Source of the DNA: a virus | Lineage: Duplodnaviria; Heunggongvirae; Uroviricota; Caudoviricetes | IMG/VR virus record: IMGVR_UViG_2698536477_000007 | DNA length: 35,574 bases | Direction: 5' to 3' (one strand) | Part shown: positions 1 to 34,281 of the stretch, piece by piece | Layout of the letters: every line of letters begins with the position of its first letter | Numbering within the stretch: the first letter of the stretch is position 1 | Made by a program: the position numbers and the translations under genes | Notes under the pieces: model-generated | Seen by the model: the letters and a program-made list of their open reading frames with translations, nothing else | What the model was told of the DNA's origin: nothing | The model's database searches: none

Positions 1-993
1 CTAATCGATGGACAGTTTATGGACACTTTCAGCCAGCGGATTAAAGCTGATTGCATCCTGTAAAAAGTCCGGCGAAAAATGCGCATACGTCATCGTTTGT
101 TGAATCGTGGCATGGCCCAGGATTCGTTGTAGCGTAACGATATTTCCGCCATTCATCATGAAATGTGTAGCGAATGTATGACGCATGACATGGGTGGCCT
201 GCCCTTTCGGTAAGTCCGGCTTCACCTCCTGAAGGATCTCCCGAAATCTGAGGTAATCAGCCTGGTACAACAATCCGGTTCTGCGGGTTTTAATTAACGC
301 AAGTACCGCATCAGAAACGGGAACGGCGCGAGATTTTCCGTTCTTGGTGTTAAAGAACATCACGCGGTTACCTACAATATGTTCCCCACGTAAACCAGCT
401 GCTTCACCCCACCTTGCCCCCGTGGAAAGACACAGAATGGCAACACGCCGCGCATCTCCATCGAGTCGTTCAAGCAGTCGTTCAATCTCCTCATCTGAAA
501 GAAAAGCCATCTCTGTGTTCCTGACTTTCAGCTTACGTATTCCCCGAACCGGGTTTTCGTTATGGAACACCTCACCCTCAATCAGCGAGCTGAACATTGC
601 AGACAAGGCACACAAATCGCGGTTAATGCTGGAAGGCATTAACCCGGCCTGTAATTTGTCGGACCGGTACCCGAGCATAAATTTTCGCGTCATCTGACTG
701 GCACGAGGATCACCCATCTCACGGTTTATCTTTTCCAGTCTGACCCTGTAGGTATCCCCGTAATCTTGGTTACGACCATCAAGCAACCACCAGGCCTCTA
801 TCAGTTCGGATAACCGACGCTGATCTGCTGGCTTAGCCTGCCATGGCTTATCATGAAAATTCTGCAAAACATACTTTTCAAACTCCTGCGCCTTTGACTT
901 CAGGGTAAAAATCTTACGAATCCGCTTTCCTTCCGTCCCTTGTGGCCTTACATCAACCTTATAACGTCCGTCTTTGAGTTGCTTAATCGACAT
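1..993 (-). CDS. int: Tyrosine integrase, P2 Int-like
   Basis: Translation MSIKQLKDGRYKVDVRP...ILCLSTGARWGEA...HVMRHTFATHF...LGHATIQQTMTYAH aligns from recall to P2 Int along its length; GGAGGGG ribosome-binding site 8 nt upstream of ATG at 993 (the 1008 start in the ORF track is a longer in-frame alternative). Confidence 0.9.
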   Translation of the reverse strand: MSIKQLKDGRYKVDVRPQGTEGKRIRKIFTLKSKAQEFEKYVLQNFHDKPWQAKPADQRRLSELIEAWWLLDGRNQDYGDTYRVRLEKINREMGDPRASQMTRKFMLGYRSDKLQAGLMPSSINRDLCALSAMFSSLIEGEVFHNENPVRGIRKLKVRNTEMAFLSDEEIERLLERLDGDARRVAILCLSTGARWGEAAGLRGEHIVGNRVMFFNTKNGKSRAVPVSDAVLALIKTRRTGLLYQADYLRFREILQEVKPDLPKGQATHVMRHTFATHFMMNGGNIVTLQRILGHATIQQTMTYAHFSPDFLQDAISFNPLAESVHKLSID

Positions 994-1062
994 GATTAGC
1001 CCCTCCAACGGATAAATTAACCAAACACTCCCTGCGGGATGAAACCCGCTCGATGTGTAACG

Positions 1063-1404
1063 TCAGCCAGCATTGCGGCCTGATCGGGATGATTTTTGGG
1101 TAACGTCGATTGAAGCCTGATCGCCCTCCGACTGAGAAGATCCATCAAGAGAGAGAGCCGGGGCAATTTGCCCGGCGGCAGGTAGCGTCTTATCCTTTAA
1201 CAGCCAAAACATATACTTTTCAAATCGATCTGCCTGAAGAACCGACTCCACGATTTTAGCTCTGGCGCTCTTTTGCCCTGATTCATAATTCCTTACGGTG
1301 GCCAGAGATAACCCTGTAATTTCAGCAAATTGTTTTTGCGTTAAGCCCTCCGCCTTACGTATCTGGCGTAATTTTTCCGCGTAGTCTATTGACAAGATAA
1401 CCAT
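1063..1404 (-). CDS. C: Immunity repressor, P2 C-like helix-turn-helix protein
   Basis: 113 aa; N-terminal segment LTQKQFAEITGLSLATVRNYESG is a helix-turn-helix and ...GQIAPAL... recalls P2 C; sits between int and a divergent gene as in P2. Confidence 0.75.
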   Translation of the reverse strand: MVILSIDYAEKLRQIRKAEGLTQKQFAEITGLSLATVRNYESGQKSARAKIVESVLQADRFEKYMFWLLKDKTLPAAGQIAPALSLDGSSQSEGDQASIDVTQKSSRSGRNAG

Positions 1405-1448
1405 TTGAGTATTAACCTCTCGAAAAAGATAACCTTTCGGTTATCTTT
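1394..1448. promoter_or_regulatory. Candidate operator: three copies of AAGATAACC half-site, two forming a perfect 10-bp inverted repeat with 4-bp spacer
   Basis: AAGATAACC at 1394-1402 (overlapping the C start codon); AAAGATAACC at 1425-1434 and GGTTATCTTT at 1439-1448 seen directly in the C/cox-like intergenic region. Confidence 0.4.
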
Positions 1449-1507
1449 ACAAACCAAAACAAACCTTCATAAGGTGCAATAGGCGCACCTGTGCGAGAGG
1501 ATAACAA

Positions 1508-2032
1508 ATGCGGGACTTCATTGCCGATAAAGAGTTATCTGACACCGATCACACAACTGGAGCGGCGTACATCAACGCCGATACCAGTCAACAAGAAGCA
1601 ACAGATAACAACGACGAACAAAAGCCACAGCGCACATATAAAAAAGGGGCAACCCTGCGGCTGGATGGCCCAATAGCCGGGCTTTGCTCACTTGAAAAAG
1701 GGGCCGCCTACATCGGATTAACAAAAACAGCATTACGCGCAGCTCTCCAGCGTAACCAGATGCCAGGGCATAAAACCCGCTCAAACCCTGAAGATGAGAA
1801 TTCGGATGGTGTTTGGTGGTTTAACGTCAGAGAGTGGGACAAGCTGGCCGACGAACTCCCGGAATGCGAGCCACCAGAATGGCACAACTGGAAAAGCTAC
1901 TGGACATACGACCGCCAGAAAAGAAAGTTTACCCCGGCTGATAAGGAAGATTGCCAGACCGTCAATGGAAAACGGGTTTACAAAGGCAGAAAGTCAAAGC
2001 TGGAACAGAGCCAGGATGTAAACGAACGGTGA
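1508..2032 (+). CDS. Cox/Apl-position DNA-binding protein (putative excisionase or early regulator), 174 aa
   Basis: Divergent from C; GAGAGG ribosome-binding site; internal helix-turn-helix-like segment LTKTALRAALQRNQMPG; longer than P2 Cox so assignment is positional. Confidence 0.45.
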   Translation: MRDFIADKELSDTDHTTGAAYINADTSQQEATDNNDEQKPQRTYKKGATLRLDGPIAGLCSLEKGAAYIGLTKTALRAALQRNQMPGHKTRSNPEDENSDGVWWFNVREWDKLADELPECEPPEWHNWKSYWTYDRQKRKFTPADKEDCQTVNGKRVYKGRKSKLEQSQDVNER

Positions 2033-2038
2033 TGAACG

Positions 2039-2434
2039 ATGAGCGGCAAAAATAAATCAGAAAAAAACGCAACCGTCCTTAAGCAGTTAAGCCTCCTGAA
2101 AGAGGAACACAAGGACGCCACGATACTGATGCATCTGGAAGGCTCACCGAAAATAACAATCACAACAACCTATAGCGAGTTACACAAAGAGCTTGAAGGA
2201 TTAATTAACTTTTGTTCAAAGCTAAAAGCGAATGAAAACATTGATGACCTGATACTTAAACCAGAAGCAGAGTTCGGACACTTTTGCGAAAGTAGAGAAA
2301 ATGGATGCATCGGAATAATGCTATACGCAACCCGTGGAATAATGATTAATCTGCCCGTTGAGCAGGCTGTGGATATATTCGGAGAAATGGCACTTAATAA
2401 AACCACTATTTACAAAAGCAAAACGACGGAATAA
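2039..2434 (+). CDS. Hypothetical protein, 131 aa, in low-GC island
   Basis: ORF translationally coupled to upstream stop (2030-2032); markedly AT-rich codon composition versus flanking phage genes; no motif recognised. Confidence 0.6.
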   Translation: MSGKNKSEKNATVLKQLSLLKEEHKDATILMHLEGSPKITITTTYSELHKELEGLINFCSKLKANENIDDLILKPEAEFGHFCESRENGCIGIMLYATRGIMINLPVEQAVDIFGEMALNKTTIYKSKTTE

Positions 2435-2454
2435 CCCGGCACGAAGGAGGATAT

Positions 2455-2973
2455 ATGACGATTACACCAGAAGAAGAAGGTATGCATAAGAAATACAGCG
2501 AACACGGGAGTAAGGCTGGCGAAGTAATCGCCATTGATGAGGATTGCCTGATAACAGGAAACCCCTGGCTGGCAACAGAAAGGGATTTAGAAGGCAAAAC
2601 ATTTTTTGTCAGAGCAATAAAGCACAAAGATAGGGTTGTGGGTGGAATTATTTATTCAACCAGTACGATTATTCCTGATAATTATCTGGATATTTCTTTT
2701 AGACCTGTAAGCATTCAGGGGTGCGAGGCATACCTTAATTATGTTGCGGAGCTAAAGGAAATTAACATGGACTACATGTGGCCAATCGTACAACGCGAAA
2801 TAATGCGACGAAAATCAGAAGGCTTCAATGTGAAAATTGAGTTTTTATCGACGTTAATGGGATTTTTACAAAAACCATTGATTCTTTTCCCCTCCCTTGA
2901 CCGGAACCTGCCAGTCAAAGAAGGGGTGGAAAAATATATTGTTGAACAAGTCAGAGATCTGGTTTGTCTTTAG
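2455..2973 (+). CDS. Hypothetical protein, 172 aa, in low-GC island
   Basis: Strong AAGGAGG ribosome-binding site 7 nt upstream of ATG 2455; AT-rich; no motif recognised. Confidence 0.7.
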   Translation: MTITPEEEGMHKKYSEHGSKAGEVIAIDEDCLITGNPWLATERDLEGKTFFVRAIKHKDRVVGGIIYSTSTIIPDNYLDISFRPVSIQGCEAYLNYVAELKEINMDYMWPIVQREIMRRKSEGFNVKIEFLSTLMGFLQKPLILFPSLDRNLPVKEGVEKYIVEQVRDLVCL

Positions 2974-3273
2974 AGGCGCGAATAAAGCACGCAAGATGAT
3001 TAATACTATGAAAGCGTGTCCTTATATTCACGGCATAGGGAGCAAAGGCTTGTTGCCCCTCTATCTGACGCAAAATTTCTGACGCAGTTTTTATCAATGC
3101 ATCCCTTTTATCATCGGGAAGTTCGCTAATGAGGAGCGAAATAAGCAGATCGGACACCACTCCCACTGAGTCTCTTGGGTCGGTCAACTTATCAACAGGA
3201 GCCACAGCAAGATTAGTTGTGTAAATGCTAACCAGGTATTCAGTGATAGCGTCCTTAACGCTTTTATCAATCA
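2951..3273 (-). CDS. Hypothetical protein, about 107 aa, convergent with the 172-aa gene
   Basis: Minus-strand ORF; chosen start MIDKSVKDAITEYL at 3273 has an AAGGT ribosome-binding site; 3' end overlaps 2455..2973 by 23 nt. Confidence 0.45.
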
Positions 3274-3382
3274 TGTTAGTTACCTTTTTTCTGGTTGTGT
3301 GGAAACACCAGAATACCACGCGCCGGGCGTGGTTAAACATCCCGGCACTGATTTTCATTTAACTTAAACGGAGTTTTCCGAT

Positions 3383-3721
3383 ATGACACAGAGACGCAGC
3401 TTCCGCACTGGCACAGAACGCCACGCAGCCCGTTTCTCAACCAGCGCATCACGCAGCAACTCGCACTACAGCCTGCAGGAAACGCACGCCACACCTGACG
3501 GGCATCTGGTTAAACAAACCGGTAAACATACCTGGCTGATTAATGATGCCGGAATTGTCATTCACCGGGGCGCACGCAACCCGATTACCGGAAATACCTG
3601 TTACTCCCTGACTCGCGGAGATGAGCAGTTCGGGCAGGATTTCACCCTGCACGAAGCATTAAGAACGGCAGACCGGTTAATCAGCGGTCGCAGTTTTCAG
3701 CACCCGGAACATCGCCGCTGA
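3383..3721 (+). CDS. Hypothetical early protein, 112 aa
   Basis: ORF with ACGGAG ribosome-binding site; GC content returns to phage background. Confidence 0.55.
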   Translation: MTQRRSFRTGTERHAARFSTSASRSNSHYSLQETHATPDGHLVKQTGKHTWLINDAGIVIHRGARNPITGNTCYSLTRGDEQFGQDFTLHEALRTADRLISGRSFQHPEHRR

Positions 3722-3740
3722 TAAATAAAAGGATTCAGCC

Positions 3741-3983
3741 ATGATCGAAGCCTACAAAATACTTATTAATAATGCGTTGCAGCGTTATCACTTCGAACTC
3801 GCAAACCGGGGGGTAACCCGGGACGAAGGACTTCGTAACTCACTGCGGGGCGCAATTATGGGACTGTATAACTGCGCACTGGGCAGCGATGACCGCGAAG
3901 CACTGGAAGAATTAAAAGTTATTGTGGCCGAACTGTTTGAAGGTGAAATCGTTGAGCCTTATTTCACAGAGGTGGCAGCATGA
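3741..3983 (+). CDS. Hypothetical early protein, 80 aa
   Basis: ORF closely following previous stop; phage-typical composition. Confidence 0.55.
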   Translation: MIEAYKILINNALQRYHFELANRGVTRDEGLRNSLRGAIMGLYNCALGSDDREALEELKVIVAELFEGEIVEPYFTEVAA

Positions 3984-4105
3984 GCGTATTTCTTTCATGG
4001 GTGATTCTGATTATTTCCGTGCTTATGGCGATTGGCATTATGCGAATTATCGAAGCGCTGAAAAATATCGAATCTTTATTTACTGGCGAAGAGCGCCGTA
4101 AATAA
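3980..4105 (+). CDS. Small hydrophobic peptide, 41 aa (MSVFLSWVILIISVLMAIGIMRIIEALKNIESLFTGEERRK)
   Basis: ATG overlaps upstream stop (GCATGAG at 3978-3984); one predicted transmembrane helix then a charged tail; below the ORF-track size cutoff. Confidence 0.4.
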   Translation: MSVFLSWVILIISVLMAIGIMRIIEALKNIESLFTGEERRK

Positions 4106-4184
4106 ATAACCAACCGGACAGAAAACATTAAAACCATCCGCATCTGCGGAGGGCTTCACTCAATCCAGAAACGGAGAAACAGCT

Positions 4185-4463
4185 ATGAGCACCAATACAC
4201 CTACAGAAATAAACAAACTATTTACCGACCCGGCGCATATTGAATTGACGCAAAAAACGCTGACTGAAATAACCAATGTACTGGATGAAAGAATATCAGA
4301 AATAGATAAAGACAAGCATTTTGCCACCTACATGGCCCTGCAAATGCAAAGCATGGCAATGGTGACAGCAAAACAGACCATCAGTGAACTCTATATGAAA
4401 AACCTGCGCCTCGAGCGCGAACTGGCAGAACTCCGGGCACAGTCCGGCCAGTTTTCAGCGTGA
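4185..4463 (+). CDS. Hypothetical early protein, 92 aa
   Basis: ORF with GGAG ribosome-binding site. Confidence 0.55.
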   Translation: MSTNTPTEINKLFTDPAHIELTQKTLTEITNVLDERISEIDKDKHFATYMALQMQSMAMVTAKQTISELYMKNLRLERELAELRAQSGQFSA

Positions 4464-5531: not shown

Positions 5532-5766
5532 ACACAAAAAAACCGCTTGCCAGCGTTCGCCTGGTCGGGTTACAGTTTTCCCGCACCTCATAAAACGGGT
5601 GCCGGGTTTCGCAGCCTGCTGACAACCAAAGCGCACAACCGCGCCAGCGGTTTTTTTGTGCGTACTGTATTGCCACGTTTTTTTCGCGTCAGAATTATGG
5701 CGGGGCGTACGGGGCCGACTTCGGTCGGGCCGGGTTCTTTGGTTGCCGGTACTGCGAACCCCGTAC
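5532..5766 (+). other. Structured GC-rich non-coding element (candidate RNA leader or terminator-promoter module)
   Basis: Perfect 15-bp inverted repeat CACAAAAAAACCGCT (5532-5546) / AGCGGTTTTTTTGTG (5645-5659); hairpin plus T7 run at 5636-5656; 9-bp perfect stem CGTACGGGG (5705-5713) / CCCCGTACG (5758-5766) enclosing a cUUCGg tetraloop hairpin (5714-5727); ORFs overlap in all frames here. Confidence 0.35.
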
Positions 5767-5836
5767 GTCTCGCCACCCACAGTTTCGCAGCTCTGGATGG
5801 TGAGTTTTCAAAACTTACAACCAAAGAGGCCACACC

Positions 5837-6064
5837 ATGGCAAACCGCAAGCAACAGCGCGCCCGCGCTGAGCGTCTTCACATCCGCACCGAAATCAACC
5901 GCAGACTCTGGCGCGCATCACGCGTCGCGCAAATCATGCATATCAACATGCTGCATGAGCGCACGCACGCGCTATCAAACCGTTACTGCGCTGCTGTCTT
6001 CAGCTATCTCGCCGAAGATATGGCAGAACTGCAAAGCCTCATCAACCAGCAACACCACCACTAA
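5837..6064 (+). CDS. Hypothetical small basic protein, 75 aa
   Basis: AAAGAGG ribosome-binding site 8 nt upstream. Confidence 0.5.
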   Translation: MANRKQQRARAERLHIRTEINRRLWRASRVAQIMHINMLHERTHALSNRYCAAVFSYLAEDMAELQSLINQQHHH

Positions 6065-6131: not shown

Positions 6132-6548
6132 ATGAAGAGCGTTAAGGGACTTTCAGATATTCAGGACTTTTTTAACTGGATGTGGGCAGTGGATCCCCGG
6201 CTGGCTTCCCGCCTGAACGACTGGCACGACTATTACCGCCGCGCCTGTAAACGGGCCGCCAGACGCGTCACCACATACGGGGATTTCTCCTTCACCGTTG
6301 ACGACCGTTACCGCGTGGACGTGAAAGGTGATGGTGATGGTTTTGGTTTATTTCACATCAACGGAACCGACAGCACCGCCATCAGCTGGTCGTCGTCAGA
6401 GATGACGCTTGTTCTGGAAATGACAAACCACAGCGTGGCCGTGAAAGGTATATACACCGCAGAAGACTTTATCGGTGAATACCAGCGCCTTCTCGTGCTG
6501 TACCGGGCAGCGTTTCAGGCGGCAACTGCCGGGGAGTGCGACGCATGA
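6132..6548 (+). CDS. Hypothetical protein, 139 aa, immediately upstream of A
   Basis: GGAGG ribosome-binding site 7 nt upstream of ATG 6132; stop overlaps A start (ATGA at 6545-6548); the 5' part of the 343-aa track ORF is judged non-coding. Confidence 0.6.
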   Translation: MKSVKGLSDIQDFFNWMWAVDPRLASRLNDWHDYYRRACKRAARRVTTYGDFSFTVDDRYRVDVKGDGDGFGLFHINGTDSTAISWSSSEMTLVLEMTNHSVAVKGIYTAEDFIGEYQRLLVLYRAAFQAATAGECDA

Positions 6549-9064
6549 GCGACCATAACGCACAACTGGCGTACCCGTGGAACGCCCCGCTGCCGGTTAT
6601 CGATCCTGAAACGTTCGGCAGAGCGCAACCAACCGCATTACGCCAGGCCATTCAGAGCTACATCAACGAAGACATTCGCACTGACGCCAGACTGGATGAA
6701 GAAACCGTCGCCTTCCTGACAACCACAGACGAAGGGAAGCGAATTAATTCGCATCTTCATCACGACGAAGAGCGTCGGATCAGACTGGAAAAACTGACGC
6801 GACACAAACGCGAAAATCCACCCACACTGGTATCTGAAGCCATGGCGGAGCTGCGCGCCCTGCCGCCGTTTCTTGCCGGTCCGCTCATCCGGGACCTGGC
6901 ACGCCTGAGCCGCAAACAGGAGAGCGCACGCCGGGAAGGGCTTAAGAACAACAGCGCATACGCGGCGGATAACTTCGTTCGTCACGGGCTGCGTGCCCGC
7001 CTGAAACGTATCGCCCGTGTGAATGAACGCTTTGCCACCCCGGCCTTTAAGGCCACCGCCGCGCGCGAACGGCTGGATGAACTGCTTATGCTGCCGCAGC
7101 TGAGCCGTGACGAAATCCAGCGCCTTGCCACCCTGACCGCCACCGCGTTTTCCACCGCACTGGAGCGCGCATGTGATGAGGTCATCGAAAAGACCGGCAG
7201 GGGTGACGATGACCTGCTCACCTGGTTACTGACCTACCAGCCACTGGCACACATGGCGTTAAAACTGGGTATCACGCCACCCTGCTGGCCGTCGCTGGAA
7301 ATCAGGCCCGACCGCCGCACCGCCCCCGACCCGGAACAGGTGCCGGGTGCGGTCATGCGCCTTTCCTGTGCGACATGGTGGAACAGTCAGTTAAGACACC
7401 TCCGGGACATCTGGCGTGAAGAACTGTTACGCGCCGCAGGTCTGGTGTCACGTAAGACATCGGTATATATCAGCCATGAAGCGTTACTGGACTGGCGCGA
7501 AAAACGCCAGCGCACCCGCGATTTTCTGAAGGCCTGGGACATCGAGAACGAAGAGGGAGAACGGTTCAGCCTTGAGGATATCTACTGGGCAGGTCTCTCT
7601 AATCCGCGTAACCGCCGTAACGAGATGATGGCCTGCGTCCGGGGGATGGAGCAGGTCGCCGAAGCACGCGGCGACGTGGCGTTTTTCGTCACCGTCACAG
7701 CCCCTTCCCGTTTTCACAGCGTGAACGATGACGGCAGTCTGAACCCGAAATACTGCGGGGCAACGGTACGTGATGCCAGTGATTATCTGGTTTACCGCTT
7801 TTTCGCCGCCGTCCGCAAGGCCATCAACAAGGCCGGGCTGGGCTGGTACGGCGTGCGCACCGTGGAGCCCCACCACGACGGTACACCGCACTGGCACATG
7901 CTGGTATTCACCAGCCCGGAAAACGAAGCCCGTATCACTGAAATCATGCGCAACGCCGCCATCAGGGAGGACCGCGCAGAGCTGGGTGATGATATATCCC
8001 CGCGTTTTAAATGCGAAAAAATCGACCCGGCAAAAGGCACACCGGCAAGCTATATCGCGACCTATATCGGTAAGAACCTGGACGCCAGCGCCTTCATGGG
8101 GAATGACCCGAAAACCGGCAAACCTTACGTCGATAAGGAATCAGGCAAAACCATGGCCGAAACCGTGGAGAACGCCATCGGCTGGGCGGCCCTTCACCGC
8201 ATCCGCCAGTTCCAGTTCTTCGGTATCCCGCCCCGCCAGGTATGGCGCGAACTCCGCCGCCTTGCCGGGCAGATGGCCCGTAACCCGACTGCCCCGCAGC
8301 GTCTGGACCATGACGACATTGACGCCATACTGGCCGCCGCCGACGTGGGATGTTTTGCCACCTATATCACCCGCCAGGGTGGTGTGCTCATTCCCCGCAA
8401 CACGTACCTGGTCCGCACCGCATACGAAACTGCCGAAGAGGCCAACGACTACGGCGAATTCCCGCAACGCATTTACGGCGTCCGCGCCCCGTCACTCGGG
8501 GAGCGCTACACCATATGCACCCACCCGGACACCTGGAAACTGGTCAGACGTAAGCCGGAAAACGAAGACCGCACGGACGAGGGTTTTGACGTTGAGTGCG
8601 GCTTTGCCGCACCTTGGACTCGTGGCAATAACTGTCCCCCTGACCAGAATCTGACCATAAACGACCCGCCAGAAAGGCAGCCGGACGGACGCAGGGAGCA
8701 GCGACTTACCCTGCCGGAAGGTGATTTGGGTGAATGGTTAAGGTCACTGACCCCTACAGAGCGAAAACAACTCACCAGGCAGCTGAAAAACCCGCCACCT
8801 GACACGGAAACCGTGAAAAACGGCGGCATCAGTGCGCCCGCTGGCGGCGTTCGCGTGAGTGTCGCACTGACCGCTGAGCCACACATCACCGCACAAATCA
8901 CCCGCGAGCTTGATGCGCTGGGCGTGCAGCTGCATGAAAGCGCCGTCGTTTCCGTCCGTCACGGTGCCCGCGTGCGCCTGGCTGACGGACGCACCGCGTA
9001 CTGGAATGACAGCACCCGCCGCATTGATATCACCCCCGCACCGAATACGGAGGCGCCACAATGA
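6545..9064 (+). CDS. A: Rolling-circle replication initiation endonuclease, P2 gpA / 186 RepA family
   Basis: 839 aa; contains ...GTPHWHMLVF... (HUH-type metal-binding motif of P2 A-like initiators); large early gene in the expected position. Confidence 0.88.
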   Translation: MSDHNAQLAYPWNAPLPVIDPETFGRAQPTALRQAIQSYINEDIRTDARLDEETVAFLTTTDEGKRINSHLHHDEERRIRLEKLTRHKRENPPTLVSEAMAELRALPPFLAGPLIRDLARLSRKQESARREGLKNNSAYAADNFVRHGLRARLKRIARVNERFATPAFKATAARERLDELLMLPQLSRDEIQRLATLTATAFSTALERACDEVIEKTGRGDDDLLTWLLTYQPLAHMALKLGITPPCWPSLEIRPDRRTAPDPEQVPGAVMRLSCATWWNSQLRHLRDIWREELLRAAGLVSRKTSVYISHEALLDWREKRQRTRDFLKAWDIENEEGERFSLEDIYWAGLSNPRNRRNEMMACVRGMEQVAEARGDVAFFVTVTAPSRFHSVNDDGSLNPKYCGATVRDASDYLVYRFFAAVRKAINKAGLGWYGVRTVEPHHDGTPHWHMLVFTSPENEARITEIMRNAAIREDRAELGDDISPRFKCEKIDPAKGTPASYIATYIGKNLDASAFMGNDPKTGKPYVDKESGKTMAETVENAIGWAALHRIRQFQFFGIPPRQVWRELRRLAGQMARNPTAPQRLDHDDIDAILAAADVGCFATYITRQGGVLIPRNTYLVRTAYETAEEANDYGEFPQRIYGVRAPSLGERYTICTHPDTWKLVRRKPENEDRTDEGFDVECGFAAPWTRGNNCPPDQNLTINDPPERQPDGRREQRLTLPEGDLGEWLRSLTPTERKQLTRQLKNPPPDTETVKNGGISAPAGGVRVSVALTAEPHITAQITRELDALGVQLHESAVVSVRHGARVRLADGRTAYWNDSTRRIDITPAPNTEAPQ

Positions 9065-10429: not shown

Positions 10430-10693
10430 TCAGGAACGCCGCGACAGAAGTTCAAGCGCATACCGGCGATCTTCCGGGCGCATGGCATCCACCAGGAACT
10501 TCACCATATTGCGACAGGAGCGGGCACCGGGGCTGAGGGTATGGGAAAAGGTCATCGTACAGACGAAGGTGTGCCCGCATTCGACATCACTGCATGCACA
10601 GTAAAGATCCGCAAGTTCAAGGGTTTTCCAGTCTGTCTTCCGGATGACAGCAGGTGCGCCACAGTCCGGACACCGGGCTTTAAAAATCCGCAT
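10430..10693 (-). CDS. ogr: Ogr/Delta-family zinc-finger late transcription activator, 87 aa
   Basis: MRIFKARCPDCGAPAVIRKTDWKTLELADLYCACSDVECGHTF gives C-x2-C-x22-C-x4-C spacing as in P2 Ogr; GGGAGGT ribosome-binding site before ATG 10693. Confidence 0.75.
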   Translation of the reverse strand: MRIFKARCPDCGAPAVIRKTDWKTLELADLYCACSDVECGHTFVCTMTFSHTLSPGARSCRNMVKFLVDAMRPEDRRYALELLSRRS

Positions 10694-13585: not shown

Positions 13586-13751
13586 GCGCCCATTATGGCG
13601 GCGCATCCGGCCCGCATTCAGGCAGAAAATTTCGGCTGTGTTCGGCTATCCCGCGTTATCCGAAGGCAGCCGAATTCAGCCAGTAGCCCCCCGCTGTAAA
13701 AATCCCGACACTCACCGGAGTTCTTCAGATTTTCACGTAAAAGAGGCCACG

Positions 13752-14801: not shown

Positions 14802-14812
14802 GGACACGCAAC

Positions 14813-19914: not shown

Positions 19915-19918
19915 TGCC

Positions 19919-22250: not shown

Positions 22251-22251
22251 C

Positions 22252-24438: not shown

Positions 24439-24785
24439 ACACGCCATCGCTTTACATCGACCTGCTTATCACTGACGGCAGTTTTACGCTGAACAGCGGC
24501 AACGAGCCACAGCGATGTGATAACCGGGTCAGCATCGGCCAGGACGTGGTGCACAGCATTATCGAAAGCGGGATCGCCGCCCTGCTTATCGGCGAACGCA
24601 GCCCGACTCTGCGCAGCGACATCATTACCCGGCTTATCCTCCTGGTTGAGGATGATGAACGGCTGGTTCCGGGGACGGTGTTCATTAACGAAGAGGCACC
24701 GGGCAGGCTGCATGTGACGGCAGAGACACAGGATTTTGGACGCATAAACACCAGGGTGAACTATGAAAGGGAAACCGGACGTTGA
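24435..24785 (+). CDS. Baseplate wedge protein, gpW/gp25-like
   Basis: About 116 aa; ATGA overlap with tape measure stop; ...SIIESGIAALLIGERSPTLRSDI... resembles the gp25-like GER motif. Confidence 0.55.
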   Translation: MNTPSLYIDLLITDGSFTLNSGNEPQRCDNRVSIGQDVVHSIIESGIAALLIGERSPTLRSDIITRLILLVEDDERLVPGTVFINEEAPGRLHVTAETQDFGRINTRVNYERETGR

Positions 24786-25947: not shown

Positions 25948-26488
25948 CTTTTTGCAGCGGCTTCGCTCGCTGAAACTGCCCTCCTGGATGGACAGGGGGG
26001 AACCCGACAAACTGCTGCGGGCCGCGCAGGCTTTCTGGTCCCGCGTATGGGAATGGATCACCTGGCCCGTGCGCCAGTTTGACCCCATGACATGTGCAGA
26101 GCCTGTACTTGATTTGCTGGCATGGGAGCGGGACATCACCCGCTTTAAAGGGGAACCCACGGAGATCTACCGCCGCCGCATCAGTTACGCCTTCATCAAT
26201 GCACAGGAGGCTGGCGAGGTGGCGGGCTTTATCGCCATTTTTGAACGGCTGGGCATCGGCTACGTGGAGTTACTCGAGCGCCAGCCCGGCGTGGACTGGG
26301 ATGTGATCCTGGTGCGGGTGACAGACAGCCAGATAGCCGACAACAGCGATCTTCTTCTGGAGATCATCCGCAAATATGGCAGGACATGCCGCCGTTACCG
26401 TTTTGAGGTGGAAACCCTTAACCCCTTCATCATCCATTATGGCGCATACGAAGGGGAGTATATCTGCTGGACGGCCAGGGCAGAGTGA
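25940..26488 (+). CDS. Tail protein I-like (baseplate), probable TTG start
   Basis: 182-aa ORF; GGAGG 6 nt upstream of TTG 25940; alternative ATG at 25988. Confidence 0.65.
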   Translation: MNNFLQRLRSLKLPSWMDRGEPDKLLRAAQAFWSRVWEWITWPVRQFDPMTCAEPVLDLLAWERDITRFKGEPTEIYRRRISYAFINAQEAGEVAGFIAIFERLGIGYVELLERQPGVDWDVILVRVTDSQIADNSDLLLEIIRKYGRTCRRYRFEVETLNPFIIHYGAYEGEYICWTARAE

Positions 26489-26510
26489 ATGACTGAAGGA
26501 GTATGACTTT

Positions 26511-28571
26511 ATGGCGAAATCTGTAATTACCAGCGCCTTTATCCGGCTCAAGGCACAGCAGGCGGTGGAAGGCACCCCCGTTGTGCTGGATGAGTTTATT
26601 TTTGCAAACGTCCCGGACCTCAACCCGGAAACGCCGGTATCCCCCGACGAAATCCTGCCGCCTGAAGATCAGATTGTTCACCGCCAGGCCGTTGGTAAAA
26701 CCGGCGTGGTGAATGAGAATGCCGTGGTTTATTCGGTCACCCTGGGGGCAGAGCTGGGTGATTTTGAATTTAACTGGGTGGGACTGGTCAGCAAAGCAAC
26801 CAGCACGCTGGCCATGATTGTTCATGCACCCACACAGAAAAAAATCAGAACCCACAACGGTAACGAAGGTAATGTGCTGGTTCGTTCCATGCTCATGGAG
26901 TACAGCGGTGCGAAAGAAGCCACTGGTATCACCACCCCGGCGCAGACCTGGCAGATAGACTTCACGGCACGCCTGGCATCCATGGACGAACGCCAGCGCC
27001 GCGAAAACGTCGATATCTACGGGAAGGCAACTTTTTTTGATGACGGGTGGCTGGTTAAGAAAGGCGAAACCTGGACAGTCAACAAAGGGGTGGGTTACGT
27101 GGAGGGGCTACGCGCAGAGCTGACCGAAGACACACCAATGGTCACGCCCACCTCCCCGTCCCGTATCTGGCTGAATGTGTGGTGGACCGGCACGCTCACC
27201 AGTGAATGGGCGACAGAGCACGAAATCATAACAGCCGACCCGGACGTTACGGAAGAGCGTTTACGGAAAACGTATCCGAGGGACGGCATTCAGCAATATT
27301 TTTGTGCCATCGCTGAAATTGATGAAGACGGCAACGTGACTGACCTCCGCCCCAGAGGAACCCCGGAAGAGCGCCGCAGTCTGGACGCCCTGAAAAAACA
27401 CGAGAGATCACGTAATCACCCGGACGCAACGCTGAAAGAAAAGGGCTTCACACAGTTAAGCAGCGCCACCACCAGTACATCAGAAACACAGGCAGCCACG
27501 CCAAAAGCGATAAAGATCGCCATGGACAACGCCGATGGTCGGCTTGCGAAAAACCGCAATGGTGAGGACATCCCCAACAAGGAATTGTTTATTATCAACA
27601 TCGGTGCTCCCCGGGTTTATGATGCTGACGGATACGTGGGTAAAGCAGGGCAACGCTGGACAACAGAACAGTTCGTGGAATGGCTGAATGAGCGCGGTGC
27701 ATTCAGAACGGGGAGCTGGGTATTAAGGGCCAATATTTCACTGTCACAGCACAGCGTGCTTACTGACACGGGGTATGGCGATATCTGCCTGGGTGGCTGC
27801 CTGATTGAAGTGTTTGGCGAACTCATCGGTGGAATAGTCAGGATCACCACAGGTCTGGAAGATTCAGATCCGGCCACAAAAGAACACCGGGCACAATTTA
27901 CCGGGGTGATACTGGATCGGGGAAGAAAAACCACCTGGTACCGCACTTACACGGATAAAAACAAACCCACACCACAGGACATCGGCGCACTGCCTGCAAC
28001 TGAGGCATTACCGGCTGGTATTCCTTTTCCGTGGCCGTCAGACACCCCGCCTGACGGTTACGCCATCATGGTGGGGCAGACATTCGATAAAGCGCAATAC
28101 CCCCTGCTGGCAAAAGCCTGTCCGGACGGTCGCATCCCGGATATGCGCGGCTGGACAATCAAGGGGAAACCCGCCAGCGGTCGTGCGGTATTGTCACAGG
28201 AGCAGGACGGTATCAAATCCCACACCCACGGGGGGAGCGTCTCAAACACTAACCTTGGCACGAAAACGACCTCATCCTTCAATTACGGCACAAAAACAAC
28301 AGGAAGCGCGGGTTCAGGCTCTGCAAGCATAGCACTGAGAACCGCCACCGCGTCACCGGAAGGCAGCGGTGACTGGACCGCATACGGGCCGGGTTCAGGG
28401 GCAAGCCTGACGGTTAACTTTCCGGCACACACGCACCCTGTAGGCATTGGCGAACACGCCCACACGATCGCACTGGGTTCACATGGTCACGGCCTGACCA
28501 TTAACCCCACCGGTAATGCCGAAAACACCGTTAAAAACATCGCATTTAACTACATCGTGAGGCTTGCATAA
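26511..28571 (+). CDS. H: Tail fibre protein, P2 gpH family N-terminus with His-rich C-terminal tip
   Basis: ...[35 protein letters not shown]... nearly matches the conserved P2 H segment ([35 protein letters not shown]); C-terminal [23 protein letters not shown]. Confidence 0.88.
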
Positions 28572-29167
28572 TGACCTTTAAAATGAGCGAACACCCGCAG
28601 ACAATTAAAATCTACAACCTGTCAGCCGGAACAAATGAATTTATCGGCGAAGGCGATGCATGGATCCCTCCGCATACCGGACTGCCTGCGCACTCAACGG
28701 ACATTGCCCCGCCTGACATTCCTGAAGGACACGTGGCTATCTTTGATGAGGATGAAAACACCTGGCACCTCATGGAAGATCACCGGGGTAAAACCGTCTG
28801 GCGTCTGGAGTCGGGAAGCGCCTTACTGATTACTGAGCCGGGCCCGTTACCGGAAAACGTGACCATAATAAAACCGGACGGGGAGTTCTGCCGGTGGGAT
28901 GGTTCATCATGGGTTAAGGATGAAGCAGCAGAACAGGCTTACCGGGTGAGCGAGGCGGAGAACAAAAAACGGGAATTAATACAGGAAGCAACAAATACAA
29001 TAAACATCCTCCAGGATGCCGTGGATTTAAATATGGCGACCGACGATGAAAGCGCCCTGCTTCCCCTGTGGAAAAAATACCGGGTATTACTGAACCGGAC
29101 AGACACGGGCAACGCGCCGGATATTGTCTGGCCTGAATCTCCTTCGCCGGATCATCACGCAGGCTGA
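28571..29167 (+). CDS. Tail fibre assembly protein (Tfa/gpG-like)
   Basis: Start overlaps fibre stop; C-terminal ...[27 protein letters not shown]... is typical of fibre assembly chaperones. Confidence 0.75.
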
Positions 29168-29178
29168 CCGGAGGCACC

Positions 29179-29904
29179 ATGACGTGGACAAGAAAAACAA
29201 TCAGCGTCAGCGCTGACATGCCCCCGCTGAGCTGTTCCGTCATCCCCGTCACACCGTGGACTTACGGGCTGGGACGATATGAAGAATCGGGGGTATATTT
29301 AAGCCCTCCGAACGCCATAAACTGGCTGGCCGGGAAAATGGCCGGAAGCCGTGCATCCGGCGACGTGACCATTATCATGATTGCCGAAAACACCCACGAT
29401 CTTTTTATACAGTCAATGGCGGCACTGACCGCCGTTCTGCCCGTGCCGGTATTCACGCAGGCACAGCGCATGGCACAGGCTGCCGCCAGTCTGAGCACTG
29501 ACAAAATGCAAATCCCGATCACCACCGACACCCTGCCCGCACCTGTGCATCTTTCCGTTGCCACAATGCGCAACGCAGTCAGCGCCGCCCGTGCAGCACA
29601 GGCCAGGCAGCTGGCAGCACAACGCCCGGATGCCGCAGGGCTTCGCCGCCAGATAAGCCGCTTTATCAGCAGACGGGCTGGCGCACTTGCCGGACTGGAA
29701 GAGGGGATCAGAACACTGGCAGAACAGAAGGCGCAGGCCTGGGTATTTCAGTACCGGGGGTATCACCGCGCCGCAGCGGCGGCCATGGTGAAGGATATCC
29801 CGGCACCGACCGCCGTACATACTGTGGCCGCACTCCTGGCGGCAGACTCATTAACTGAACTGGGGAAAATGATCCATGAGCCAGACCGCACTGCTCGCCC
29901 TTGA
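29179..29904 (+). CDS. Hypothetical protein, 241 aa (tail-associated or cargo)
   Basis: GGAGG ribosome-binding site; no motif recognised. Confidence 0.5.
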   Translation: MTWTRKTISVSADMPPLSCSVIPVTPWTYGLGRYEESGVYLSPPNAINWLAGKMAGSRASGDVTIIMIAENTHDLFIQSMAALTAVLPVPVFTQAQRMAQAAASLSTDKMQIPITTDTLPAPVHLSVATMRNAVSAARAAQARQLAAQRPDAAGLRRQISRFISRRAGALAGLEEGIRTLAEQKAQAWVFQYRGYHRAAAAAMVKDIPAPTAVHTVAALLAADSLTELGKMIHEPDRTARP

Positions 29905-30418
29905 TGGTGAGGGTATTTTCATGCAGAACATGGTTATTTCGCCCTCGATGCAGTTCCAGGAAAAGGACCAGTCCGGTCAGACATCGAGCACCGCGAACGC
30001 CGAGCAGGGCATCAAGGCCAAAGAGCTTCGCGTAACCGGGATGATCACCTTTGACAATGAGCGGGCCCTTCAGCGCATTTTCCAGCTGGCCTCTGCCACC
30101 ACCGGGGACGGTGCCCTGAAAGTTTACCGTATCGCAAACGCCACCGCTGCCGCCATTAACTTTCGTGAAGGGACATTCTCCGGGCAGATAGACGCACAGC
30201 AGCAGACCGACCGCCTCGCCTGGCAGGTCAGCTTCACATTACGCGAAAGACGAAGCGTACCGGAAAAACGCCAGGCACGCGCCACCCCCGGCAGCAGCCG
30301 TAAACAGACACCGCAGACGCCCGGCGCAAAAGGCGGGACCGTGGCCGACGAAACACCGGAGAAAATGACCTGGTTCGAAGAAAAGGTCCTCAAACCCGTC
30401 AATGATGCGCTGGAGTAA
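29876..30418 (+). CDS. Hypothetical protein, 180 aa (tail-associated or cargo)
   Basis: ORF overlapping previous by 29 nt; no motif recognised. Confidence 0.5.
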   Translation: MSQTALLALDGEGIFMQNMVISPSMQFQEKDQSGQTSSTANAEQGIKAKELRVTGMITFDNERALQRIFQLASATTGDGALKVYRIANATAAAINFREGTFSGQIDAQQQTDRLAWQVSFTLRERRSVPEKRQARATPGSSRKQTPQTPGAKGGTVADETPEKMTWFEEKVLKPVNDALE

Positions 30419-30420
30419 CC

Positions 30421-32094
30421 ATGAACCCCACTAAACGTCTGTTACTGGGTAACGACACCATTCAGCTGGTCAGTTGTTCCGTCATGCTTGAGCTGAACGC
30501 GTGCGGACGCGGATTTATCACGGCCAGAACAGAGCAGAACTACACCGGGCGCCCCGTTCGTCTCGATATCGGATACGGAAACGACCTGGTGCGCTGGTTT
30601 ACCGGATACGTTGAACGCAGCCAGCCCGCTGAAAACGGCTCGGTGCGGCTTCTGATTCGTGAAATGGCGGGGATCCTTGATCACCCCTTCCCCTGTTCAT
30701 TTCAGCACCCGACAATGCGCACGGTCACACAGTGGCTGAGTGAGGCCAGCGGGCTGGAAATCATCCTGCCGGACAACGCGGCTTACACTGACAGACCCGT
30801 TCCGCATTTCACACACAGCGGCACGGGCTACGAACTGCTGGCCAGTCTGGGGCGTATTTTCTCCGTACCGGATTACATCTGGCATCCGTTACCGGACGGC
30901 GGCATTATGGCCGCTGCTGCCGCGCAGGGGATGTTTTCCGGTCGCCCCGTCACCATCCCGCACGAGTTCAGCCAGGCATCAACGGGCGGGCACAGTATGA
31001 CCCTCCCGATGATTCAGACGCTGCGACCGGGTGTGGAGGTGAACGGTCAGCGCCTGACGATGGTCATGCTGGAAGATGACAACATGACCATCACGTGGAC
31101 ACCGCGCAATAAAGCCACCGGCGCTCCCCTCCAGAAGTCCCCTTTCCGTCGCCAGGCTGAAAAGGCCTTCCCTGAGCTGGCATCAGGGCTTCACCTGCCC
31201 AAACTGGCACGTGTTGAGGCACCGACCGAAGCCGTCAGCGCGGGCAATATTGCCGACCCGTTCAGACCCCGCTACGCGGTGAATCTCCAGCTGCTTGACG
31301 AGAACGGCAACCCGGCAGCAGATACGCCCGTCTATAACGCCGTTCCCCTCCCCGTTCCCATGGCGGGCAGTGAGTCCGGCATGTTCCAGTTCCCGCCACC
31401 CGGAACCCTGGTGGAAGTGGGATTTGTGGAAGGCCGGGCGGATAAGCCCTTCATCCGCCAGATAATGGCAGAGGGCCACAATCTGCCCGACGTGAAGCCG
31501 GGCGAGCAGTTGCAGCAACAGCGCGACGGCGTATCGCAGCGCGTGACGGTCGCCGGAGACTGGGAGCGCCAGACAGACCAGCGGATACAGGAGACATCAC
31601 GCGAGCGCGTGGTGAGTGCAGACGAGGAAAAGCGGAGCCTGACCAGCCGGGAGACCACCATACAGGCAACCGACACAACCACCGTCCTGGGCGTATCCAC
31701 GCTTCAGGCTGGCGCGGTCACCCATATCACTGAAGAGAACTACAGCATCAGCACGGGCGGGCACATGATGGTGGTTGCCGGTACCTGTGAGCGCGACGTG
31801 GAAGGCGACACCCAGGACACCGTGGGCGGCAGCCTTACCGAAAAGATTAAGGGCGTCCGTCACAGTATTGCGCTGGCGCAGAAGCTGGTTGGCGATACGG
31901 TGAAGCTGGGAAACGAGGGCATTAATGTACTGACCATGCTGACGGACCTTGCCGATGTGGTGGAAGAGCTGGCCGATATTACAGCATCACATACCCACCC
32001 AAAAACGGGCACGTCTCCGCAGGCCGCACAGTTCAGCCAGGTCGCTCAGGAGTGCCGCCAGCTTAAAAATAAATATTCACCAATAATCGAATAA
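30421..32094 (+). CDS. Baseplate hub/spike protein (gpD-like N-terminus with gp5/VgrG-type fold segment)
   Basis: 557 aa; ...FPPPGTLVEVGFVEGRADKPFI... resembles the conserved gpV/VgrG spike motif; last gene of tail operon. Confidence 0.6.
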   Translation: MNPTKRLLLGNDTIQLVSCSVMLELNACGRGFITARTEQNYTGRPVRLDIGYGNDLVRWFTGYVERSQPAENGSVRLLIREMAGILDHPFPCSFQHPTMRTVTQWLSEASGLEIILPDNAAYTDRPVPHFTHSGTGYELLASLGRIFSVPDYIWHPLPDGGIMAAAAAQGMFSGRPVTIPHEFSQASTGGHSMTLPMIQTLRPGVEVNGQRLTMVMLEDDNMTITWTPRNKATGAPLQKSPFRRQAEKAFPELASGLHLPKLARVEAPTEAVSAGNIADPFRPRYAVNLQLLDENGNPAADTPVYNAVPLPVPMAGSESGMFQFPPPGTLVEVGFVEGRADKPFIRQIMAEGHNLPDVKPGEQLQQQRDGVSQRVTVAGDWERQTDQRIQETSRERVVSADEEKRSLTSRETTIQATDTTTVLGVSTLQAGAVTHITEENYSISTGGHMMVVAGTCERDVEGDTQDTVGGSLTEKIKGVRHSIALAQKLVGDTVKLGNEGINVLTMLTDLADVVEELADITASHTHPKTGTSPQAAQFSQVAQECRQLKNKYSPIIE

Positions 32095-32108
32095 TCATTC
32101 ACTTTAAC

Positions 32109-32133
32109 AGGCCGCGCAATGTGGCCTTTTTTA
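32109..32133 (+). terminator. Rho-independent terminator of the late tail operon
   Basis: Stem GGCCGC (32110-32115) / GTGGCC (32121-32126) with 5-nt loop, followed by TTTTTT (32127-32132). Confidence 0.55.
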
Positions 32134-32219
32134 TTCCCGGACGATAAAAAATATTCATCAACGGACATCACCCACCACGAAAAACCGTCCGCAGCAGAAA
32201 AAAAGATGGACGAAACGCC

Positions 32220-32790
32220 CCACGTAATCCCCGCGTAAAACGTCACGTAACGCCACGTAACGAAGAGATAACCCCGCCGGCCCGATTCGATCCCCTGACA
32301 TCAGAAAACGATTTCTGCGCCCCAGAATCGCCGCAAATGGCCGGAAATTTTCGGGGGCGACGTAACGCGTAAAGTGACGTAATCGGCGCTACCCCGCACA
32401 CGCCTCCGGTATTTGTGTACGATAAATTTTGCAAATCGAAATGGGTGCAAAACACCCCGCCAGGGCGCGCCATTACTGAGGTTTTCCCTTCTGAATGGTT
32501 TTGCACTTTGTGCAAGGTTTTGCAAAAGTGTGCAAAAACTCCGGCTTTCTGAGGATCCCGAAAAAATTTAATGCACTGAATAACAAGAGATTTTTAAAAT
32601 TACGTCACGATCGAAGATCTGAAAAAGGATCCGACGACGAAAACGAAAAAATCAGGAAAGCCAGAACTGGCGCGGCCTGGCGGGGAGTGGCAGCAAAAAT
32701 CACTTTTGCACACTTTTGCACAACTGCTCCGAAAAAGGATGGCGAAGGGGAAGGAAAAACAGCCACGTCATCCGTTGCACGTAACGGACG
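32220..32790. repeat. Non-coding region dense in short repeated motifs (CACGTAACG-type and TTTTGCAC/GTGCAAAA-type)
   Basis: ACGTAA at 32222, 32245, 32255, 32360, 32377, 32780 plus inverted TTACGT at 32600; TTTTGCA/TGCAAAA clusters at 32427-32450, 32498-32540, 32701-32723; no credible ORF. Confidence 0.5.
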
Positions 32791-32955
32791 TAAAAGGTAA
32801 ATTACGCGCGGGTGCCTTTCGGCTGACGGCTGGAAGGAATACCTGAAGGCCGGATGTGAAAAGGCCCCGAGTCAACTAACGTTAACCCGAGGCCCTGACA
32901 CTTCCTACCTGACAAGTGGAAGGTTAGCGCCTCCCTGTAAAAGGAGTCAAGCGCT

Positions 32956-33096
32956 ATGCCGCAAAAAACGATCATAGTGAGCATTTTATGCATAACTATT
33001 TTGATGATTGTCTGGATGATACACACGTCACCGTGTGAGTTCAGGCTTAACATCATGTGGTCAGAATTTGCGGCGTTCTTGCAGTGTAAACAGTAA
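32956..33096 (+). CDS. hok: Hok-family type I toxin peptide, copy 1 (46 aa)
   Basis: MPQKTIIVSILCITILMIVWMIHTSPCEFRLNIMWSEFAAFLQCKQ: single transmembrane helix, conserved LCIT, C-E and E-x-AAF spacing of Hok/Gef; AAGGAG ribosome-binding site 10 nt upstream. Confidence 0.75.
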   Translation: MPQKTIIVSILCITILMIVWMIHTSPCEFRLNIMWSEFAAFLQCKQ

Positions 33097-33185
33097 GAAA
33101 CCGCAGCGGGGGTGAAAGCCCCCGCTATCCGGTTGCCGGGTTCGGCTGATATGGCACCCTTTTGGGTTAGCGTACTGACTTCATT

Positions 33186-33210
33186 GCCCGCAATATGCGG
33201 GCTTTTTTTT
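33186..33210 (+). terminator. Rho-independent terminator at end of hok unit 1
   Basis: GCCCGCA-ATA-TGCGGGC followed by T8. Confidence 0.6.
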
Positions 33211-33427
33211 GCCGTCTCCCCTCAACAGCTTCAATACTGAGCATTGCGCACACAAAGGGAAATCAGTAAATTACATGCGGGTGCCTTTCGGCTGACGACT
33301 GGAAGGAATACCTGAAGGCCGGATGTGGAAAGGCCCCGGAGTCAACTTTAATGTTAACCCGAGGCCCTGACCATCTACCCTAAGCAAGTGGAAGGTTAGC
33401 GCCTCCCTGTAAAAGGAGTCAAGCGCT

Positions 33428-33568
33428 ATGCCGCAAAAAACGATCATAGTGAGCATTTTATGCATAACTATTTTGATGATTGTCTGGATGATACACAACT
33501 CACCGTGTGAGTTCAGGCTTAACATCATGTGGTCAGAATTTGCGGCGTTCTTGCAGTGTAAACAGTAA
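33428..33568 (+). CDS. hok: Hok-family type I toxin peptide, copy 2 (46 aa)
   Basis: Identical to copy 1 except T24N (MIHNSPCEF). Confidence 0.75.
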   Translation: MPQKTIIVSILCITILMIVWMIHNSPCEFRLNIMWSEFAAFLQCKQ

Positions 33569-33658
33569 GAAACCGCAGCGGGGGTGAAAGCCCCCCGCTA
33601 TCCGGTTGCCGGGTTCGGCTGATATGGCACCCTTTTGGGTTAGCGTACTGACTTCATT

Positions 33659-33683
33659 GCCCGCAATATGCGGGCTTTTTTTT
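33659..33683 (+). terminator. Rho-independent terminator at end of hok unit 2
   Basis: Same hairpin and T8 run as unit 1. Confidence 0.6.
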
Positions 33684-33900
33684 GCCGTCTCCCCTCAACA
33701 GCTTCAATACTGAGCATTGCGCACACAAAGGGAAATCAGTAAATTACATGCGGGTGCCTTTCGGCTGACGGCTGGAAGGAATACCTGAAGGCCGGATGTG
33801 GAAAGGCCCCGAGTAAAACATTTGTTTAACCCGAGGCCTAACCCTTCCTACCCTAGACAAGTGGAAGGTTAGCGCCTCCCTGTAAAAGGAGTCAAGCGCT

Positions 33901-34041
33901 ATGCCGCAAAAAACGATCATCGTGAGCATTTTATGCTTAACCATGTTGTTGACCGTCTGGATGATACACCGTTCTCCGTGTGAGTTCAGACTTAACATCA
34001 TGTGGTCAGAATTTGCGGCGTTCTTGCAGTGTAAACCGTAA
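33901..34041 (+). CDS. hok: Hok-family type I toxin peptide, copy 3 (46 aa, diverged)
   Basis: MPQKTIIVSILCLTMLLTVWMIHRSPCEFRLNIMWSEFAAFLQCKP; several substitutions relative to copies 1 and 2. Confidence 0.7.
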   Translation: MPQKTIIVSILCLTMLLTVWMIHRSPCEFRLNIMWSEFAAFLQCKP

Positions 34042-34132
34042 GAAACCGCAGCGGGGGTGAAAGCCCCCGCTATCCGGTTGCCAAAGGTTCGGTCGAAAGT
34101 CGCACCCTCACACAAAAGTCACAAAGAAAAAC

Positions 34133-34170
34133 AAAGCCCGCGGCGTAAAAAAACTGCGGGCTTTTTGTTT
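34133..34170. terminator. Bidirectional rho-independent terminator (serS on minus strand, hok unit 3 on plus strand)
   Basis: AAGCCCGC...GCGGGCTT stem with A/T runs on both sides, about 110 nt past serS stop. Confidence 0.6.
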
Positions 34171-34281
34171 CAAAGATGGACGTTATCTGGACACATGAAA
34201 ATAAAAAATCTTTATTTTCAATATGTTAATCTCCCACTAAAACCACCCGCAGGCGCTTTTTAGATTCAGAAAAATTGGGTA

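Follow-up and report, generated by a model that had tools for sequence, protein, structure and literature searches.

The 35,574-nucleotide stretch catalogued as virus record IMGVR_UViG_2698536477_000007 (the window) opens on a phage integrase gene and closes on the bacterial gene serS, with three tandem hok toxin genes lying just before serS, and thus raises the question of whether these toxin genes are cargo of a prophage or part of the chromosome that it entered. The DNA is Escherichia coli chromosome, aligning end to end with NZ_AP045168.1 (strain JNEC-KY172) at 99.95% identity with two small indels totalling 18 bp. A first-pass annotation had bracketed the right prophage junction between 32135 and about 34130, and on that basis had considered that the array might lie outside the prophage. 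We find instead that the right attachment site (attR) lies at 34246–34253, downstream of the array, and therefore that the whole array (32797–34175) is inside the att-bounded element. These boundaries, and the status of the three hok units as phage cargo, we hold with high confidence.

The junctions were defined by comparison with the empty serS–dmsA site of strain K-12, not by the repeat itself. The K-12 spacer is 238 bp long and contains no hok, as the first-pass annotation had stated, and reads ...AAAAAAAGCGCCCGCAGGCGCTTTTTAGATTCAG... or, in the orientation of the window, ...GGGAGACAAAAAAAGCGCCCGCAGGCGCTTTTTAGATTCAGAAAAATTGGGTATTAGCC. Since the window starts exactly at the integrase stop codon (bases 1–3 are CTA, i.e. 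TAG of the minus-strand gene at 1–993), the left attachment site (attL) had been expected outside it, and the search to the left did recover the direct repeat pair: in the 99.95%-identical record, the dmsA side matches K-12 as far as ...AAAGCGCCCGCAGG, after which, 89 bp short of the integrase stop, AGGTTTAACGCT... begins, so that attL reads ...AAAGCGCCCGCAGG and, across the junction, AGGTTTAACG. Its core, CCCGCAGG, occupies the positions 89–96 bp to the left of window base 1. At the serS end, ...TCTCCCACTAAAACCACCCGCAGG in the window is succeeded by K-12 sequence again (CGCTTTTTAGATTCAG...), giving an attR of ...CTAAAACCACCCGCAGG joined to CGCTTTTTAGATTCAG, with the same core inside the serS terminator hairpin, 28 nucleotides (nt) from the serS stop codon. 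The octamer is thus present at both junctions and in single copy in the empty site, and the flanks are colinear with K-12 on either side. Relative to K-12 the insertion takes in all of the sequence from the integrase to 34253, the array included, and the earlier bracket of 32135–34130 is therefore wrong. Within the window CCCGCAGG occurs only at 1031, 16544, 18971 and 34246; taken alone, this 8-bp repeat is not significant (four copies against 1.87 expected). Two other candidates for the right attachment site were rejected: a site in the stretch that separates the array from the last tail gene, since CCCGCAGG is absent from 18978 to 34246, and the loosely similar string AAAAACCGTCCGCAGCAG at about 32183–32200, which showed no junction behaviour in any comparison.

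The first-pass annotation had supposed that a target gene might lie beyond the left edge, but none exists. Judged from sequence, integration targets the bidirectional intergenic terminator hairpin between serS and dmsA, within its loop and 3' half (in K-12 AGCGCC-CGCA-GGCGCT, 10 bp followed by a U-run, -16.7 kcal/mol, z = -2.6). A tRNA target was rejected, the window being devoid of tRNA genes. After integration the serS side retains a weakened hairpin and U4 (z = -0.9); host DNA (34254–35574) comprises the remaining half of the serS terminator followed by serS itself (34282–35574, minus strand), which stands at the far end as first annotated. The left arm of the phage attachment site (attP) forms the phage arm of attR, an AT-rich segment at 34176–34245. 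In the mechanism that we propose, the integrase would recombine a hairpin in attP (AAACCACC-CGCA-GGAGGTTT) with the serS–dmsA terminator hairpin, strand exchange taking place within the common CCCGCAGG. No publication in which the serS/dmsA terminator serves as an attachment site came up in our literature searches, and the exact attL and attR given here annotate an integration site that is used in approximately 6% of complete E. coli genomes.

Further evidence that the array belongs to the phage comes from copies at other chromosomal positions. In strain OkiPb01677 a copy lies between rraA and zapB, to which window positions 1–34261 align as one block at 99.48% identity with all three hok units included; it ends on the right at the same CCCGCAGG, starts on the left at the same AGGTTTAACGCT, and carries an identical phage arm of attR. 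The high identity of this second-site copy, together with its shared ends, implies that the element has probably moved recently. The K-12 rraA/zapB site is again a terminator hairpin (AAAGGCACC-GCAA-GGTGCCTTTTTT). Relatives of the same lineage, recognised by the spacer at 32095–32796 together with the gene for a 557-amino-acid (aa) protein that precedes it, lie beside prpB (two hok units, strain JNEC-KY171) and beside ytfP (one unit, strain JNEC-KY202) and likewise end in hok. Their att arms differ, wholly or in part, from those of the window, so that hok stays with the late genes while integrase and att modules are exchanged. Counting the window, the lineage occupies four positions in the chromosome: serS/dmsA, rraA/zapB and the neighbourhoods of prpB and ytfP. 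Terminator-like hairpins are the target in at least three of them.

Among 5426 complete E. coli genomes, a related integrase gene (int) adjoins dmsA in 345 and hok adjoins serS in about 50. Among the matches listed, 24 genomes were common to both sets, 23 of which have 32–39 kb between the two junctions, and all four of the loci that were inspected directly have P2-like tail, D or ogr genes upstream of hok or of the slot that it occupies. The arrangement named beforehand as decisive for host ownership, a prophage-free strain with hok beside serS, was sought and not found among the 24 cross-listed genomes or the four inspected loci. The 24th genome, NZ_CP075697.1 (STEC2018-607), has its int–dmsA junction at 4.39 Mb and its hok–serS junction at 0.89 Mb, a separation of 3.5 Mb that suggests a large rearrangement that broke the chromosome at or within the prophage. 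Two of the related loci at serS differ in content. In strain C311 (NZ_CP062204.1) a YafO-family toxin, annotated as a type II toxin-antitoxin, replaces hok in a related P2-like prophage (2638–3921 of the extracted locus), and the position is therefore a variable cargo slot; attR in this strain restores the complete serS terminator, AGCGCCCGCAGGCGCT. In strain LH50-c (NZ_CP100500.1) the second hok unit beside serS (about 3988–4340 of the extracted locus) has ATA in place of its start codon and is unannotated, a case of decay of one unit. The hok arrangement of the LH50-c type is common to about 25 genomes.

The array itself consists of three head-to-tail units on the plus strand with a period of 472/473 bp (unit 1, 32797–33265; unit 2, 33266–33738; unit 3, 33739–34175). 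Each encodes an intact 46-aa Hok protein (open reading frames at 32956–33096, 33428–33568 and 33901–34041) with a strong AAGGAG Shine–Dalgarno sequence 8 nt upstream. The translations (MPQKTIIVSILCITILMIVWMIH.SPCEFRLNIMWSEFAAFLQCKQ) score 28.4, 29.4 and 27.8 bits against Pfam PF01848 HOK_GEF (cut-off 22; profile positions 7–42 of 42), in agreement with the three tandem toxin genes first annotated, and show the N-terminal hydrophobic helix and conserved C-E-x-R ... A-A-F motif of this class of peptides of about 50 aa. Terminators follow at 33186–33202 in unit 1 and 33659–33675 in unit 2; the 3' end of unit 3 is distinct, and its terminator hairpin lies at about 34136–34170. Pairwise identity among the units is 90–94%. 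Minus-strand open reading frames of 84–123 aa opposite the hok units (32802–33056, 33271–33528 and 33744–34115) recur with the array; these are almost certainly mirror-image artefacts and not genes.

In an alignment of the three window units with eleven units of related prophages and phages, near-invariant blocks (the 5' end CGGGTGCCTTTCGGCTGA; a stem GGCCCC.../...GAGGCC; AGGTTAGCGCCTC...AAAGGAG-CAAGCGCTATG; the ends of the open reading frame; and the 3' hairpin) are interrupted by two hypervariable patches, which coincide with the tail and the loop of a predicted minus-strand RNA. The leader, Shine–Dalgarno region, 3' fold-back element and terminators are 95–100% conserved. The minus strand of the conserved segment reads TTGACT, 18 nt, TAACCT, and the RNA predicted from it is 58–61 nt long, with a single-stranded 5' tail, a long hairpin and a U-run (approximately 32857–32914, 33326–33386 and 33799–33859 in units 1 to 3). 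The hairpin is more stable on the minus strand (-26.5 to -28.2 kcal/mol) than the same bases on the plus strand (-12 to -18 kcal/mol), and at two positions of the stem the minus-strand RNA forms G.U wobbles where the plus strand would be mismatched. Only 8–13 of 24 bases are shared between the 5' tails of different units, while the flanking 60 columns are invariant across all three. The Rfam sok model matches at the same relative place in each unit (35.8–51.3 bits, E 6e-10 to 7e-6). In the minimum-free-energy fold of unit 3, 33750–33768 pairs with 34089–34109 in a 5'–3' fold-back; units 1 and 2 hold the complementary GGGTGCC/GGCACCC, yet in their minimum-free-energy folds the 5' end pairs locally.

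This anatomy is as expected for Sok-type antitoxins of diverged specificity, and we have moderate confidence both in the predicted Sok-like RNAs and in the independence of the three modules. Each unit would be a self-contained type I toxin-antitoxin locus. The 46-aa membrane toxin would be made from a structured hok mRNA transcribed from a weak plus-strand promoter, and a promoter on the minus strand would give rise to a Sok-like hairpin RNA some 60 nt long that pairs with the hok leader through its single-stranded 5' tail. Triplication may have occurred by unequal recombination with divergence of the Sok tails afterwards, and with such diverged tails the three modules would be largely independent. 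Several observations tell against this interpretation. The Sok-like RNA is itself a prediction; the Rfam sok matches fall below the gathering score of 59 and are on the plus strand. A promoter consensus scan of 32000–34400 returned no sites at threshold, the -10 element proposed for Sok is poor, and the hok and Sok promoters that we propose, identified by eye, fall short of the scan threshold. Nor is there a mok-type frame, as no plus-strand open reading frame of at least 25 aa enters hok and an in-frame TAA lies 18 nt upstream of each ATG; with no such overlapping frame, regulation may differ from the paradigm of plasmid R1.

Comparison with hok/mok/sok of R1, a type I system of post-segregational killing, makes both the likeness and the difference clear. 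The window units share with it a Hok/Gef-family toxin, a structured mRNA with 5'–3' complementarity, predicted to give fold-back pairing in unit 3, and (here predicted) an antisense hairpin of about 60 nt with a single-stranded 5' tail opposite the leader, but they lack a mok frame, are phage-borne and match the Rfam sok model below threshold, and the predicted antisense target lies 30–40 nt upstream of the hok Shine–Dalgarno sequence rather than over the mok start. The closest relatives of the units are hokW-type loci of Stx-converting lambdoid phages (933W L0129, Stx2 phage 86 and others), with 78–87% nucleotide identity over about 390 bp of leader and open reading frame. These too are prophage-borne type I toxin loci, but they are single-copy, belong to lambdoid and not P2-family phages, and are internal rather than att-adjacent. 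The ibs/sib and ldr/rdl loci of E. coli are tandem type I toxin-antitoxin arrays with discriminating antisense RNAs, and resemble the window array in consisting of complete toxin/antisense units whose variable patches coincide with the antisense recognition region (predicted in the present case); they differ in toxin family and in being chromosomal arrays that are not phage cargo. By analogy with hok/sok of R1, the array might stabilise the lysogen by killing cells that lose the prophage, exclude other phages abortively, or do both.

Among phage records, the nearest parallels for the position of the array are Escherichia phages P88 (Xuanwuvirus, NC_026014) and Chuche (PP925824), which have a P2-family gene set like that of the window and carry one hok ('MokW-like host killing') unit, about 73–75% identical to unit 3, between the last late gene (D/ogr) and attP–int. 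In the circular P88 record hok is at 34928–35068 and int at 108–1103, and the gene order in Chuche is D, ogr, hok, com/methyltransferase, int. The attP of P88 also targets an intergenic terminator hairpin. Both phages differ from the window in having one unit instead of three, and another attP and integration site; the possibility that P88 shares the serS site, which was expected because int of UMNK88 adjoins dmsA, was rejected, as its attP matches the ytfP-side junction of JNEC-KY202.

Could the array nevertheless have been host (island) DNA already present beside serS, with the prophage integrated upstream of it and attR between 32135 and about 32800? A terminator (32109–32127) does separate the last tail gene from the array, and GC content falls to a host-like 49–50% from 32001 on. 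But hok is absent from serS in K-12 and in the great majority of the 5426 genomes, the empty-site breakpoint is at 34246–34253, the core octamer is missing from the interval that this explanation needs, the array accompanies the phage to rraA/zapB, prpB and ytfP, and phage genome records hold hok in the matching slot; we consider host origin extremely improbable. That hok was acquired together with the element, as the first-pass annotation had favoured, is therefore upheld. Three points count against phage ownership: for a P2-type core, the attP–attB match of only 8 bp is short; attL lies beyond the window; and the census covers 24 of the approximately 50 hok–serS genomes by coordinates and four by inspection.

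Another explanation accepts that the array came with a phage and takes it, together with the attP arm, to be the right end of an older and different P2-like element, fused to the present one by tandem integration and deletion or by recombination, and thus a hitch-hiking remnant rather than selected cargo. The segment comprising hok and the att arm (from 32797 or 33260 to 34253) is indeed about 93–95% shared with otherwise different P2-type prophages that end in ogr, while the spacer at 32095–32796 is unique to the lineage, and hok was retained when integrase and att modules were swapped among its members. Such a history, however, equals ordinary modular mosaicism: a single att pair exists today and the 34.3 kb move together, no hok unit is disrupted and the regulatory elements of all three are conserved, and the occupant of the slot is hok in phage records and a YafO-family toxin in another prophage, as expected of a maintained cargo slot. 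We judge the remnant explanation unlikely. Slightly more plausible, though still improbable, is that the three units are inert, decaying duplicates with no toxin-antitoxin activity. The chromosomal hok loci of K-12 are mostly inactivated, one related unit in LH50-c has lost its start codon to ATA, and the consensus scan passed no promoter. Set against this are the three full-length open reading frames with their strong Shine–Dalgarno sequences, the conservation of leader, Shine–Dalgarno region, fold-back element and terminators with variation confined to the antisense tail and loop, and the degree of divergence among the units, which at 90–94% identity are not fresh duplicates and yet include none that is disrupted.

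We therefore return to the array as phage cargo. The hok units occupy a cargo slot that follows the last late gene and precedes attP, which makes them the last item before attR in the lysogen; in the circular phage they would lie immediately upstream of attP and int. Cargo hotspots reported for P2-like phages include A–Q, int–att, int–A and positions among the tail genes (PMC13586616, PMC9122126), and the passages retrieved from the former by term searches name neither type I toxins nor an interval from the last late gene to att. Literature searches for hok in P88 or in P2-like phages found nothing specific. We suggest, tentatively, that this slot may be an unlisted toxin-antitoxin hotspot of terminator-targeting P2-like phages, holding zero to three hok units or a YafO-family toxin and here three hok/sok modules with independent Sok tails. 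If so, the array would be a triple, non-cross-neutralising addiction or abortive-infection device, and the last DNA to leave on excision. Nothing in this is conceptually new, since P2-family prophages, hok/sok cargo and tandem type I arrays are all known kinds; the locus adds another case of type I toxin-antitoxin cargo beside attP in P2-like phages, with a copy number of 0–3 and diverged antisense tails, and the array could serve studies of how tandem hok/sok units avoid cross-talk.

Window positions 1–34253 with the 96 bp to their left form, as far as sequence comparison can establish, a single complete temperate prophage of the P2 family (Peduoviridae). Gene identities were taken from the RefSeq annotation of the 99.95%-identical record and from DNA similarity, with profile searches on selected proteins only. 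The element has the divergent Q–P / O–N–M–L head module, P2-family capsid, gpA endonuclease, C/Cox switch and Ogr/Delta activator of the family. In comparison with phage records, the early region is about 80–82% identical to P88-type Peduoviridae and part of the late region is about 72% related to Salmonella phages SI7, SW3 and SW5, with the best record covering no more than 17% of the first 25 kb of the window.

At the left end, the tyrosine integrase (330 aa; Pfam Int_N 1.2e-28, Phage_integrase 4.8e-20) is followed by an immunity switch (1063–2032) in which a C-like helix-turn-helix repressor (1063–1404, minus) faces Cox (1508–2032, plus). A gpA-like replication endonuclease occupies 6536–9064 (plus), and an Ogr/Delta-like zinc-finger late activator (10430–10693), the portal (10731–11804) and the large terminase (11780–13606) are encoded on the minus strand. 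The plus-strand late operon (13560–32094) encodes scaffold, P2-family major capsid, small terminase, head completion, sheath (DUF2586), tube, holin (19919–20224), DNA methyltransferase (20214–20966), M15 endolysin (20966–21304), tape measure (22252–24438), baseplate, tail fibre (26511–28571) and fibre assembly proteins, and ends with the gene for the 557-aa protein (30421–32094), which has a weak Phage_base_V match. As in phage P2, a tyrosine integrase stands at one prophage end, the C/Cox switch and divergent head genes are present, and accessory genes cluster in a few slots; the Ogr/Delta-like gene, however, lies beside the portal here and at the right end next to attP in P2, and the order of the tail module differs, with sheath and tube before the lysis genes. 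The right end of the window phage is formed by the 557-aa gene and not by ogr.

The lineage-specific spacer of 700 bp (32095–32796) that separates this last gene from hok unit 1 contains, in both orientations, about eight copies of TTTTGCAC/GTGCAAAA, as well as about ten ACGTAA motifs, together with a RefSeq-called hypothetical protein of 96 aa that has no Pfam match. It is present in 12 of the 5426 E. coli genomes, each time with this phage lineage, and had no match in the phage collection; its sole match in the plasmid collection is a 1.2-Mb record resembling a chromosome.

Two features of the remaining phage genes deserve mention. The DNA methyltransferase gene lies inside the lysis cassette, between holin and M15 endolysin. 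In the early region, an isrK-like RNA (5583–5657; Rfam isrK, 65.9 bits) and a C4-type antisense RNA (5693–5780; Rfam C4 antisense RNA, 87.1 bits), both above gathering scores and on the plus strand, lie directly 5' of a 75-aa 'derepression protein' open reading frame (5837–6064, plus), and RefSeq places an 'ash family' pseudogene on top of the two RNA genes. This layout (5583–6064) resembles the cI RNA–epsilon part of the left operon of satellite P4, here within a P2-like phage.

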